Origin: a bacterium
GTDB lineage: Bacteria > RBG-13-61-14 > DATKZS01
DNA: 64,000 bases
Direction of reading: 5' to 3'
Assembly: GCA_963674965.2 (NCBI GenBank)
Contig: CAXXFL010000005.1
Span: 704,001 to 768,000, forward strand
Each line of letters starts with the position of its first letter. Position 1 is the first letter of the stretch. Shown piece after piece: positions 40,094 through 45,766 of this stretch. A program made the position numbers and the translations under genes. The notes beneath the pieces were generated by a model. That model searched no databases, was not told the origin of the DNA, and worked only from the letters and a program-made list of their open reading frames with translations.

Positions 40094-41347
40094 TTATAGA
40101 ATTATACCTTTAAGTGAGAGGCATTCCCTAACTTCGTTCAATATGGAAGAAGGAACTGGATTTCCGGACAGATCGATAATCATTCCAGGGTCAAAATGGT
40201 GGCCGTACAACGCAAGGTCGCTATAGTCCGGCATTGAATCGCAAAGTCCATCCAGGCTTTTCACTCGGTTATTTGACAGGTTCAAGGTTATAGAATAATA
40301 AGGCAGGTCGGCCAAGTCGGTCAAGTATCCGTTTTCATCAACTAACCCCGAGCAATGACTTCCATGTTCGTCTTCTTTGGCAATGCACTCCCATAAATGA
40401 ATAGGCAGGCTTTTTACCCCGGCCAGACATGAAATATCTTCAATCTTGTTCGAGGACATGTCAATGGTCGCTGGAAAAATATTTTGTTCCTGCATCTTGG
40501 CAAGGGGCGTAACGTCTAAAATATCATTGCCGGAAATGCGTACCTCCTGAATCTTGGGCATGAGCAAAAGGGGAGAGATATCCCGAATACGGTTTTCGCT
40601 CAGATCGATTTTATAAATTTCCCAATGGTTACAAAGCGCCGAGAAATCGCGGATTTTATTTTTCCCCAGGTTGGCCACTCTGAGGAGGGACATTTTTTCA
40701 AGCGCGTCGATCCTTGAAACTCGGTTGTTTGCAAGATTAATCTCGGACATTCTCCCGAGACCGCTGAGAGGGGAGAGGTCGCGGACCTTATTATTTGAAA
40801 GGTCCAGGACCTCTAGGCTCTTCAGGCTGGAAAGAGCGGACAAATCAGAAATCTCGTTATCCCGCAGACTCAGTCCTTTTACATTTTTCAGACCAGATAG
40901 AAAGCCGATATCATTGAGGCCGGTCGAATCGAGATTAAGGTACTCGAGTCCGGAAGCGCCGGACAGGCCGTCGAGGTCCTGAAGGGGATTGAATGAAAGA
41001 TTGGCATCTTGTAATTTCTTTATATCGCGCAAGGGCGAAAGGTCGGATATCTCGTTGAAAGAGATATCAAGCTTTTGAAGATTCACGCAATGCTCGACGC
41101 CGCCAAGGCTTTTTATTCCCCTAAGCGAAAAGGAAATTTCCTTTACCTCGTCCAACTCCCATTTGAAAATTGCGGATGCTTTTTTCTTGTGCTCCCCGGC
41201 AAGGATTGACCAGAAAACGTAACCATGCAATTTAGGGTCTTCGAACCAGACCGGCTTTACATAGAGCCACAAAGTATAAAAGGAAACAGCGAAAGCTATT
41301 CCCAGCGCGGTTAAAACCAAAGTAATGGTTTTTGTTTTGAGCTTCAT
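40094..41347 (-). CDS. Internalin-like leucine-rich repeat protein with N-terminal membrane anchor
   Basis: About ten 22-aa LxxLxLxxNxIxDLSPL repeats; AT-richer than the flanks; current ATG lies inside a MITE end. Confidence 0.9.
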   Translation of the reverse strand: MKLKTKTITLVLTALGIAFAVSFYTLWLYVKPVWFEDPKLHGYVFWSILAGEHKKKASAIFKWELDEVKEISFSLRGIKSLGGVEHCVNLQKLDISFNEISDLSPLRDIKKLQDANLSFNPLQDLDGLSGASGLEYLNLDSTGLNDIGFLSGLKNVKGLSLRDNEISDLSALSSLKSLEVLDLSNNKVRDLSPLSGLGRMSEINLANNRVSRIDALEKMSLLRVANLGKNKIRDFSALCNHWEIYKIDLSENRIRDISPLLLMPKIQEVRISGNDILDVTPLAKMQEQNIFPATIDMSSNKIEDISCLAGVKSLPIHLWECIAKEDEHGSHCSGLVDENGYLTDLADLPYYSITLNLSNNRVKSLDGLCDSMPDYSDLALYGHHFDPGMIIDLSGNPVPSSILNEVRECLSLKGIIL

Positions 41348-41524
41348 GCAAAAGTCCTTTTCTTTGCGGCATAGCCGCTTTGGAGTGCGGTCGCTTGAGA
41401 CCGCTTTCGATGGCCTTGGCTTGACAAGGCCTATTAATACACCGGCTTGCCTCGCGTCAAGCCGCTCGGAAGAAAAGCGGCGTCGAGCCGCCGCACTCCA
41501 AAGCGGGAATTTTGCAAGAGGCTC
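41339..41524. mobile_element. 186-bp MITE, copy 1
   Basis: TIRs GAGCTTCATGCAAAA / GAGCCTCTTGCAAAA; GTTTT direct repeats at 41334-41338 and 41525-41529; internal 16-bp perfect IR 41375-41390 / 41491-41506. Confidence 0.88.
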
Positions 41525-41753
41525 GTTTTGATACGGGATTTTTTCATAGACTCCTTTCTCGCCATGTTCTACTCTATAAACGCCTGAGAAAGAGAAAATT
41601 TTACCGTCGATATCTATTGTGGAATTGAATTATGGCGAGTATATGGCCCGAATGAGAAATAATTGAGGAATATTTAATTTCAGGACAGGGTGAAATTTTC
41701 GCGCCGCCTCGAGGGAAAGGGGCCTATTAATATCTAGGCCCGCCCGCCGCTCC

Positions 41754-42149
41754 TCACGCGCTGACGTCGAGGCGGGCGCCGGGGACGTGGGCGTCGCGGC
41801 CGCTTTCCATGCCGTTGAAGGCGACGCGGTATTTTTTGGACTGGTTGAGCTGGAGCTCGATCCGGTCCTTGTGTTCACGGACCCTTCTAAGGACGTGGGC
41901 CTGGGAATCGATCATCTCCCGCCGTACGGACTCGATGAAGCGAAGCTCTTCCGGCTCCATTTCCTCCTGGTGGCCGCCGTCCCGGACGTTTTCCTCGAGC
42001 CGCCTGATGTTGGCCGCCCGCGTTTTGTATTCCTCGAGCTGGACGCTCAGTCTCGCGTATTCCTCGAGCTCGAGGCTGACCCCGATATTGGTGATGAGTT
42101 CCTTGGTACGATTGAATTCTTCCAGCAACAACTCGCAGAGGTTAGACAT
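41754..42149 (-). CDS. FliT-like flagellar chaperone
   Basis: Helical 131-aa ORF after fliS with a C-terminal xxD motif; call is mainly positional. Confidence 0.55.
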   Translation of the reverse strand: MSNLCELLLEEFNRTKELITNIGVSLELEEYARLSVQLEEYKTRAANIRRLEENVRDGGHQEEMEPEELRFIESVRREMIDSQAHVLRRVREHKDRIELQLNQSKKYRVAFNGMESGRDAHVPGARLDVSA

Positions 42150-42195
42150 CGCTCCGCCGTCCTTTCCGCTATTCCAGCTATGAATGGGGTCCGAA

Positions 42196-42576
42196 TTATG
42201 AGGCCTTTTTGACCGCTTCTCTCCAGCCTTCGGCCAGTTCCTCCCACACTCCTTTCACGTCGAGCAAATGGGCGGGGTCCTTTTCGGTCCTGGCCTTGAG
42301 TATCCTGGAAAGAACGAAAAGATAGATATCGGTAAGACCCTTGGCAAACTCCTCGTCCACTTCCGGCTTGAGGGCGTGGATAAGCTCCTCCACTATGCGC
42401 TGGGCCTTGGCCAGGTTCTGGTCCATGTCCAGGTATCTTTCCTCGGAGAAGGCTTCCTCGGCCTGGTTTAAATCCCTGGTCACTCCCTCGTAGAGCATGA
42501 CCACCAGGCCGGCTGGAGAGGCCGTCGTCACCGAGGCCTCGCGGTAAAGGTTGAAGGGCGCGTTCATGTTCATCAT
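42196..42576 (-). CDS. fliS: Flagellin chaperone
   Basis: Y....V.TASP..LVVMLYEG, KAQ.I..EL, L..IY, L.EGW; start ATG 42576 after GAGGTGG. Confidence 0.93.
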   Translation of the reverse strand: MMNMNAPFNLYREASVTTASPAGLVVMLYEGVTRDLNQAEEAFSEERYLDMDQNLAKAQRIVEELIHALKPEVDEEFAKGLTDIYLFVLSRILKARTEKDPAHLLDVKGVWEELAEGWREAVKKAS

Positions 42577-42588
42577 TTTTTCCACCTC

Positions 42589-43953
42589 TTATGCTCTATA
42601 TATAGATCCGGCCGCAAGATAATTTTGCTGAGCCTGCATCTCGCTTATGAGGGTCTCCAGCGTGGTGAACTTGTGTTTCAAGTTCTTCTCGTACTCGACC
42701 AGCCTGGCCTCGGCCTCCTGAATCTGGTCGTCGAGCTGGCTGATGGACTCGTCAAAACCGGTGGCGCGGTTGGGAATAATTCCCTCCAGCGGGTCGGTTA
42801 TCTGGGTCACTAGTTCATCAATCTTCGTGCCAAGGCCATCGACCGAGCTGGTACCGGTGAACAGTCTTATCAGCTCGTCGAGGTTTTCCTCGGCCACGTC
42901 CTCGAACTCGGTCTCGTCAAGCTCATAGGTCCCGTCGGACTGGGTCTTGAGTCCCAATTCTCCCAGACTGGTGATCCCGCCTCCCAACCCGCTGATAGGA
43001 GTCATGAAAAGCTTTTGGAAGTCCATCTGGATGGACCGTATGGCCGAGTCGCCCGACAAGGGTCCGGCTTCCTTGGTAGTCTCGTTGTAATGGGCCTGCT
43101 TATGGAAGAACTCGGCTATATCGTTATAGGCGTCCATAAAATCTTTTATATTGTCCTTGACCGCGTCCTTGTCGGGCGAGATAACGAGGGCGATTTCCTG
43201 TCCCGCCTCGGTCACGTTGAGAACATCCATGCTCAGGCCGGGAAGAATGTTCTCAATCTCGTTGGTGGCGCTGGCCACGGTGATGCCGTCGACGGTCACG
43301 CTGGCGTCCGCCGCGTCCTGGACCTGGGTAAAGCTCAGGCCCTGGCCGCCGGTAAGCCCGCCGGCGTCGATGGTAATTGCCTGGTCCTCGCCGGTGTCGG
43401 CCGAGCTGATCACCAGTTGGTAGGGCTCGTCACCGCCGGAGTTTATAAGCCAGGCCTTGACGTTGGCGCCGGAGTTGTTAATGGAGTCTACCAGGGAACC
43501 GAGGGTATCGTTCGAGGAATCCACCGTTATATCGGTGGTTTCTCCATCCACGGTAATGGAGAGCGTGCCCGCGCCCACGCTGGTGGCCGTGGTGTCGGCG
43601 TACCCGTTCGAGGTCTCGACCTCGGACTGGGCCACCGAGTTGACCTTGACGTGGTGCGTGCCGGTCGTGGCCTGGCCCGTTATATTGGCCTTGAAATAAC
43701 CCGACTCGCTCATGCTGGACTCGTAGACGTCCCAGGAGGAGCTTTTCTTCAGCTTTTCGGCAATGTCCTCCAAGGCTTGAAGCTTGTCCGAAAGGTCCTG
43801 GAAAAGGTCTTTTTGCTTTTCCATGATGGACTTTCGAGCTTCCAGCTTATCGATGGGCATCCTCTCGAGTTTGACCAGGTTCTCGACTATTCCGGCCGTA
43901 TCCAAACCGGATGCCAAACCTGAAAACGTTATCGCGGGATTTCTGACTTCCAT
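42589..43953 (-). CDS. fliD: Flagellar filament cap protein
   Basis: FSGLASGLDT, A.DA...VDG, F.DAYN, L.GDS, F..LE. Confidence 0.95.
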   Translation of the reverse strand: MEVRNPAITFSGLASGLDTAGIVENLVKLERMPIDKLEARKSIMEKQKDLFQDLSDKLQALEDIAEKLKKSSSWDVYESSMSESGYFKANITGQATTGTHHVKVNSVAQSEVETSNGYADTTATSVGAGTLSITVDGETTDITVDSSNDTLGSLVDSINNSGANVKAWLINSGGDEPYQLVISSADTGEDQAITIDAGGLTGGQGLSFTQVQDAADASVTVDGITVASATNEIENILPGLSMDVLNVTEAGQEIALVISPDKDAVKDNIKDFMDAYNDIAEFFHKQAHYNETTKEAGPLSGDSAIRSIQMDFQKLFMTPISGLGGGITSLGELGLKTQSDGTYELDETEFEDVAEENLDELIRLFTGTSSVDGLGTKIDELVTQITDPLEGIIPNRATGFDESISQLDDQIQEAEARLVEYEKNLKHKFTTLETLISEMQAQQNYLAAGSIYRA

Positions 43954-45580: not shown

Positions 45581-45766
45581 GAGCCTTTTGCATAGGTCCC
45601 GCTTTGGAGTGCGGCGGCTCGACGACGCTTTTCTTCCGAGCGGCTTTACGCGAGGCTAGCCGTTGTATTCTTGGGCTTTTTCAAGCCAAGGCCATCGAAA
45701 GCGCTCTCAAGCGACCACAATCCAAAGCGGCTATGCCGCCAAGAAAGGGACTTTTGCAAGAAGCTC
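45581..45766. mobile_element. 186-bp MITE, copy 2 (inverted relative to copy 1)
   Basis: Ungapped reverse-complement match to 41339-41524 with about 19 mismatches by hand count; GATA direct repeats at 45577-45580 and 45767-45770. Confidence 0.88.

Follow-up and report, generated by a model that had tools for sequence, protein, structure and literature searches.

A MITE with IS5-type ends splits the 5' coding end of a leucine-rich repeat gene and offers an in-frame ATG in its terminal repeat

Start codons at the ends of a mobile element have been described for MITEAba12 of Acinetobacter, where, according to the accessible part of the report, the outward terminal repeat of two copies gives the neighbouring CDS its first four residues, MQQS (PMC6382973). 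[quoted passage not shown] Further searching of the literature for IS ends that supply start codons gave nothing useful.

Here we describe a locus of an uncultured bacterium, contained in a stretch of 64,000 nucleotides (hereafter the window), in which a 186-bp MITE occupies the 5' end of a gene for a leucine-rich repeat (LRR) protein. Judged by the accessible part of its description, MITEAba12 resembles the present element in being a MITE of the IS5-family type with a preference for AT-rich targets (PMC6382973). However, the start codon is a consensus feature in MITEAba12, whereas in the sequences analysed here it is a variant present in 9% of the right ends. Unlike MITEAba12 as described there, the present MITE sits inside a CDS, whose N-terminus is replaced; its hairpin is predicted at -97 as compared to about -25 kcal/mol, and an outward promoter was not detected in our scan, which no internal promoter of the MITE passed either. 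In contrast to REP2 as summarized in the review (PMC3184786), we are dealing with a classical MITE with target duplications and a polymorphic ATG. The principle is not new, having been proposed for other MITEs, and the present case is one more of this kind. Particular here are the insertion inside a CDS, a start codon that coincides with a minority polymorphism of the terminal repeat, and a native start placed such that it could open the hairpin. The features of the locus are as follows.

40094..41347, minus strand: LRR gene as now read, an uninterrupted ORF of 417 aa from the ATG at 41345-41347
41334..41338, minus strand: downstream target duplication AAAAC, now part of K4-T5 in the new reading
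41339..41524, minus strand: MITE of 186 bp with IS5-type terminal repeats and one long hairpin, recognized by its copies, fold and shared ends
41345..41347, minus strand: ATG within the right terminal repeat that shares the frame of the LRR ORF; the variant base 41346 is element position 179, where the consensus has A
41355..41359, minus strand: Shine-Dalgarno-like AAGGA that belongs to the element consensus and precedes the new ATG by 7 nt
41434..41547, minus strand: leftover upstream ORF of 37 codons, running from the native ATG through the entire 5' arm of the hairpin
41477..41494, minus strand: terminator-like inner hairpin GCGGCG-GCTCGA-CGCCGC, followed by TTTTCTTCC; its loop is an IS481-type target in other copies
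41525..41529, minus strand: upstream target duplication AAAAC (GTTTT on the plus strand)
41545..41565, minus strand: native start region with ATG 41563-41565, AAGGAG 41551-41556 and ATG 41545-41547
41629..41658, minus strand: promoter-like site 5' of the native start (TTCTCA, 18 nt, CATAAT), a consensus match only
45581..45766, plus strand: second MITE copy in the window, older, 89.8% identical, with a 4-bp GATA duplication

The MITE ends read GAGCCTCTTGCAAAA and TTTTGCATGAAGCTC, forming terminal inverted repeats of 15 bp with two mismatches in the window copy, which are conserved over 66 copies. A BLAST search of the genome (6.5 Mb, 7 contigs) with the element returned 96 matches. At least 150 bp are covered by 66 of them, all of which represent single loci with recognisable ends, and nine further copies are interrupted. 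A transposase is absent from the interior, which is traversed only by chance ORFs of 43-68 aa. Scanning for the terminal repeats revealed two identical 1373-bp elements bearing the 15-16 bp ends of the MITE. Their 390-aa ORF matches DDE_Tnp_1 (PF01609, 1.1e-14) and DUF772 (PF05598, 1.4e-11), which we take to be the domain pair of IS5-family transposases. Similarity between the MITE and this IS is confined to the ends, about 16 bp each. Likeness to the IS5 family thus comprises the transposase, the length of 1373 bp, the mostly 4-bp duplications and the shared terminal repeats, whereas the MITE departs from its partner IS in its interior of G+C-rich palindromic modules, which also stand alone in related genomes. 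Because of its 66 copies, the shared IS5-type ends, the target duplications and the missing internal transposase, the element qualifies as a MITE belonging to an IS5-type family, its partner IS being assigned by the transposase domains.

The two IS copies (C1:87746-89118 and C6:305099-306471; L048 and L049) show 100% identity and have 15 left-flank bases in common, but their right flanks differ; they may be part of a larger duplicated segment. One of them lies 15 bp from the MITE copy at C1:89133. An Rfam search with the MITE gave two matches at chance level (E 0.13 and 0.15), far below the gathering scores. Outside this genus, homologous MITE copies with 83-85% identity occur in a single further genus of its family, and among the related genomes near-full-length copies were seen in G001 only. 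The G+C-rich inner module (41472-41506, about positions 19-53 of the element) has matches of ~30 bp with 90-100% identity up to class level, for instance 32 in G003 and 16 in G011. Given this difference in distribution, the inner palindromic module seems, from these matches, older and more widespread than the MITE itself.

The 20-nt flanks of the 66 copies have a mean G+C content of 33% as compared to 57-60% for the contigs of the genome, which argues that the MITE family prefers AT-rich targets. With 45% G+C and A-rich first codons, the LRR gene is therefore a natural target for this MITE. Together with the 66 copies, the AT-rich preference makes the family cluster at gene boundaries: some copies adjoin gene starts, such as C4:23555, which sits 37 nt before a lipoprotein-like ORF. 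Targeting of start codons was not seen in the empty sites rebuilt by script, which covered the 43 MITE copies with a duplication of 3-7 bp.

The usual duplication of the family is 4 bp. Both ends are intact in 40 copies, of which 26 show a duplication of 4 bp, five a 5-bp duplication (the window copy being one of them), one each a duplication of 6 bp and 1 bp, and seven have none. Over all copies, 5-bp duplications are found in 8/66, and in most of those the 4-bp reading fails. Thus, the 5-bp duplication is a real minority outcome, and the in-frame reconstruction of the window locus, where only the 5-bp reading fits, is credible.

The native AAGGAG (41551-41556) is followed by a 3-nt spacer and ATG 41547, from which 23 nt, that is seven codons plus AC, lead to the element. 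The native start could also be the in-frame ATG 41565, which as things stand heads an ORF of 43 aa; the LRR gene is therefore cut after codon 7 or, counting from this earlier ATG, codon 13. Upon deletion of 186+5 nt, base 41333 fills the split codon and the LRR frame resumes, whereas deletion of 186+4 nt fails. The empty site rebuilt by the script is a single ORF of 426 aa from ATG 41565 with the junction at codon 13. Past the junction, in-frame ATG or GTG codons are absent from the region of the N-terminal anchor; the nearest start-type codon is a TTG at codon 10, which lacks an upstream AGGA/GGAG core and falls within the hydrophobic segment. Therefore, insertion of the MITE split the coding 5' end of the LRR gene. 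The leftover upstream ORF ends with TAA (41434-41436), which is followed by TAG, the tip of the hairpin.

These results bear out every sequence statement in the preliminary description of the locus, made from the sequence alone. It had identified the element as a MITE with a large hairpin in the leader, and had proposed that removal of 186 bp and one GTTTT rejoins the native AAGGAG-N3-ATG start at 41547, that this start now yields only 37 codons up to TAA 41434, and that ATG 41347 opens the 417-aa ORF in frame, 7 nt past AAGGA. The copies, ends, duplications and fold, the frame arithmetic and the rebuilt ORF agree with all of this.

The LRR protein consists of an N-terminal membrane anchor of 23 residues followed by leucine-rich repeats (LRR_4 match, 2.9e-38). 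Its native N-terminus is MKKSRI, or MARKESMKKSRI if translation starts at the earlier ATG, and the new one is MKL; in both cases the shared KTKTITLVL follows. The swap reduces the N-terminal positive residues from five to three and leaves the anchor and all repeats unchanged. P0001, the closest homologue among the library proteins (34% identity, 93% coverage), is built likewise, its short N-terminus leading into a single hydrophobic anchor with the repeats behind it. Altogether, 3489 proteins of the library had E <= 0.001 among 7999 scored, none of them close. A search of 41 genomes including its own gave matches in 12, the best foreign ones reaching 34-41% identity in the repeats only; no orthologue was found in the 40 relatives, among which the genome is alone in its genus. 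Metagenome contigs contributed one locus with 34% identity, again no orthologue. Five further LRR gene matches are present in the genome itself, but the N-termini of these paralogues have diverged too far to indicate where the native start lies.

The LRR gene is located directly downstream of a flagellar cluster (window 41754-43953, minus strand), which comprises a 454-aa ORF that reads like FliD, FliS (PF02561, 4.6e-30) and a 131-aa ORF without Pfam match. The G+C content of these neighbours is 56-60% as compared to 45% for the LRR gene.

How well would the new ATG serve as a start? The 3' end of the 16S rRNA, CCTCCTTTCT, has the standard CCUCC tail, and AGGA, GGAG or GAGG cores precede the first ATG in 40% of 4997 long ORFs as compared to 16% for internal ATGs. 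Genome-wide, the start of GGAG peaks at positions -12 to -10 (248, 299 and 328 counts) versus 53 counts at -7. The GGA of the element starts at -10 from the new ATG and thus at the modal position of the genome; the AAGGA containing it is present in 34/66 MITE copies. The native GGAG, at -7 from ATG 41547, occupies a position where counts are near background. Thus, the native start may be the poorer site, or translation may begin at ATG 41565. The promoter-like site further upstream is one consensus match found versus 0.7 expected.

For the MITE as a whole, a single hairpin of -96.8 kcal/mol is predicted (z -5.7), and none of 200 shuffled sequences was as stable. Fold prediction for the leader gives probabilities of being unpaired of 0.01-0.07 for both the AAGGA core and the AUG, with the exception of the variant U (1.00). 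When the 5' arm is held single-stranded, the values for AAGGA and AUG rise to 0.13-0.97. The leftover upstream ORF covers exactly the 5' arm and stops at the tip, so ribosomes that load on the native start could open the hairpin. In addition, the inner hairpin with its T-rich tail, which is oriented on the strand of the gene, could stop transcription before the new start is reached.

We tentatively favour the following course of events. An IS5-type MITE very recently inserted into the A-rich first codons of the low-G+C LRR gene, duplicating 5 bp and severing the native start from the body of the gene. Owing to the T at position 8 from the element end, the terminal repeat contains an ATG downstream of the MITE's own AAGGA, its frame being a matter of chance, and the resulting ORF exchanges the native first residues for MKL while keeping the positive stretch, the anchor and the repeats. 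In free mRNA, the new start is predicted to be paired inside the MITE hairpin and would hence be usable only conditionally. Ribosomes loading at the native start would translate the 5' arm and stop at the hairpin tip, and their passage would release AAGGA and AUG on the 3' arm. The insertion, the MITE family, the variant frequencies, the frame and the predicted pairing are observed; that the MITE is transcribed through, that translation of the upstream ORF opens its hairpin, that the ATG is used and that the product is functional is inferred. That the new start is usable and that its T is a chance or inherited variant of the family has, in our estimation, somewhat short of an even chance of being correct.

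If the start is used, the locus would provide a clean natural example of a nearly harmless transposon insertion inside a gene: since the MITE brings along a ribosome-binding site and sometimes a start codon, just a few N-terminal residues would be exchanged. It would then also be a natural system in which to study how ribosomes translate across a very stable leader hairpin and downstream of it. The effect is limited to one gene in an uncultured bacterium. For annotation, the lesson is that the start of the LRR gene as now read lies within a repeat.

The origin of the ATG can be judged from the other copies. Comparison of all genomic copies at this position, as suggested in the preliminary description, reveals a minority variant: the triplet in the right ends (n=66) is AAG in 51, ATG in six, ACG in three and otherwise changed or degenerate in six cases, and in the left ends (n=66, reverse complement) AAG in 55, ATG in two, ACG in two and otherwise changed or degenerate in seven cases. 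The other three element ends in the window indeed read AAG, AAG and AAA, as reported previously. The preliminary description set the ATG of the window copy against these three ends; genome-wide it is not special to this copy, as it recurs at both ends in different backgrounds. The five other right-end ATGs open just 2, 7, 2, 2 and 1 codons. As they are pointless there, no selection is needed to account for the presence of such a triplet at the LRR locus.

A young subfamily of 26 copies, each with at most eight differences from the window copy, gives a finer view. Three of the 26 equal the subfamily consensus, and the window copy corresponds to this consensus plus A179T alone; no other copy is identical to it. 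Only two lineage markers vary more within the subfamily than position 179 does (4/26 copies; three T, one C). T179 is found with both states of position 114, so it arose more than once or was moved by conversion. Judging from these alignments, T179 is a recurrent, apparently neutral polymorphism of the MITE family, which may have been carried in with the element or may have arisen in place. Among ends that face long outward ORFs, no statistical signal of selection for T179 was obtained: where the outward frame 0 offers an ORF of at least 100 codons, the end carries ATG once (the window copy) and AAG twice (C3:448833 right and C7:586811 left), and in one case the terminal repeat is missing (C2:189601 left). 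As a separate observation, the changes at position 179 and its partner position 8 are all transversions, with no transition among the 66 copies: A to T in six and A to C in three right ends at position 179, and T to A in two and T to G in two left ends at position 8.

According to the most serious alternative, the insertion is a fresh knock-out: the gene has been rendered inactive, and its in-frame ATG is coincidental and not used at a meaningful level. The single difference from the young-subfamily consensus indicates that the insertion is very young, in line with the copies that still equal this consensus, and an intact ORF is then expected even for a dead gene since there was no time for decay. 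Hence, the earlier statement that the ORF is otherwise intact is correct as to the 417 uninterrupted codons, but it says little about function. Inactivation is further in agreement with the pointless ATGs at five of the six right ends that have one, with the pairing of AAGGA and AUG inside the hairpin, with the terminator-like structure inside the MITE, and with the low G+C content of the gene and the existence of paralogues; because other LRR genes are present in the genome, loss of this one may be tolerated. However, the frame, the spacing of AAGGA and the preserved charged stretch and anchor fit a working start, and the native start, which persists, would drive ribosomes through the 5' arm. 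On balance, we regard inactivation as possible but rather doubtful.

Adaptive repair in place would require that the element inserted with an AAG end and that a later local A-to-T change was favoured by selection for having made the LRR gene translatable again. This idea draws on the T being the sole difference from the subfamily consensus and on the exact sequence occurring in no other copy, although the missing donor copy could be due to loss or excision. With an AAG end, the LRR frame would lack ATG, GTG and TTG for 94 upstream codons (open frame of 511 aa versus the 417-aa ORF), and the T adds a mismatch that would loosen the stem at the start codon. On the other hand, position 179 is variable in the subfamily, where T recurs or spreads by conversion, and neither an empty site nor an AAG allele of the locus was found that would polarise the change. 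Empty-site alleles, which the preliminary description had proposed to look for, were sought in relatives, metagenome contigs and run contigs, without success. Four public runs, none of them recorded as RNA, contain parts of the stretch as contigs, in which rare variants are dropped; a credible joint skipping the MITE was not among them. One apparent joint, 41190-41657, was regarded as spurious, being present in one contig with 21 letters on its shorter side at a depth of 3.5. Selective repair is thus unlikely in our view, and so is, to the same degree, its full form, in which the consensus-AAG insertion killed the gene and a selected A-to-T change created both the start codon and an unpaired AUG, giving rise to a two-step ribosome relay. 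Accordingly, where the preliminary description had envisaged gene rescue by an exapted element end, the split and the in-frame start behind AAGGA stand, a signal of selection was not found among the copies, and rescue itself is something we infer.

All other readings, even taken together, are very improbable. The MITE might sit in a 5' leader with the true start always downstream, at the TTG of codon 10, just as other copies lie shortly upstream of genes (e.g. C4:23555), but this is scarcely plausible, as a start there falls inside the hydrophobic anchor with neither charged residues nor an AGGA/GGAG core before it, and the rebuilt frame reaches two ATGs, one of them behind a 9-nt match to the anti-Shine-Dalgarno complement. 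A sequencing or assembly error at 41346, named earlier as a way in which the proposal could fail, or a misassembled repeat, to which 66-copy repeats are prone, is the least credible reading of all: contigs of two runs, made with another assembler, cover 40100-41368 with 0 differences, including the T at 41346, and, starting in unique gene sequence, reach 30 nt into the MITE at a depth of 16-21, although both runs probably derive from the source sample and therefore provide a check on the assembly, not on the biology. The third run contained fragments of the LRR gene only, and the fourth MITE-like pieces only.

The MITE is itself a target of another element. A 1449-bp IS of the IS481 family (rve and LZ_Tnp_IS481) has nine genomic copies, all of which reside inside MITE copies and none outside (C1:349055, C1:530327, C1:1033944, C2:628774, C3:274311, C4:18235, C4:240843, C5:401161 and C6:430454; example locus L050). 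The IS copies are 99.8-100% identical to each other, and the MITE backbones hosting them are 91.9-98.7% identical to the window copy. Insertion is always into the loop of GCGGCG-GCTCGA-CGCCGC with duplication of CTCG or CTTG, five copies pointing one way and four the other. From this distribution, the IS looks like an element that is site-specific for the MITE hairpin.
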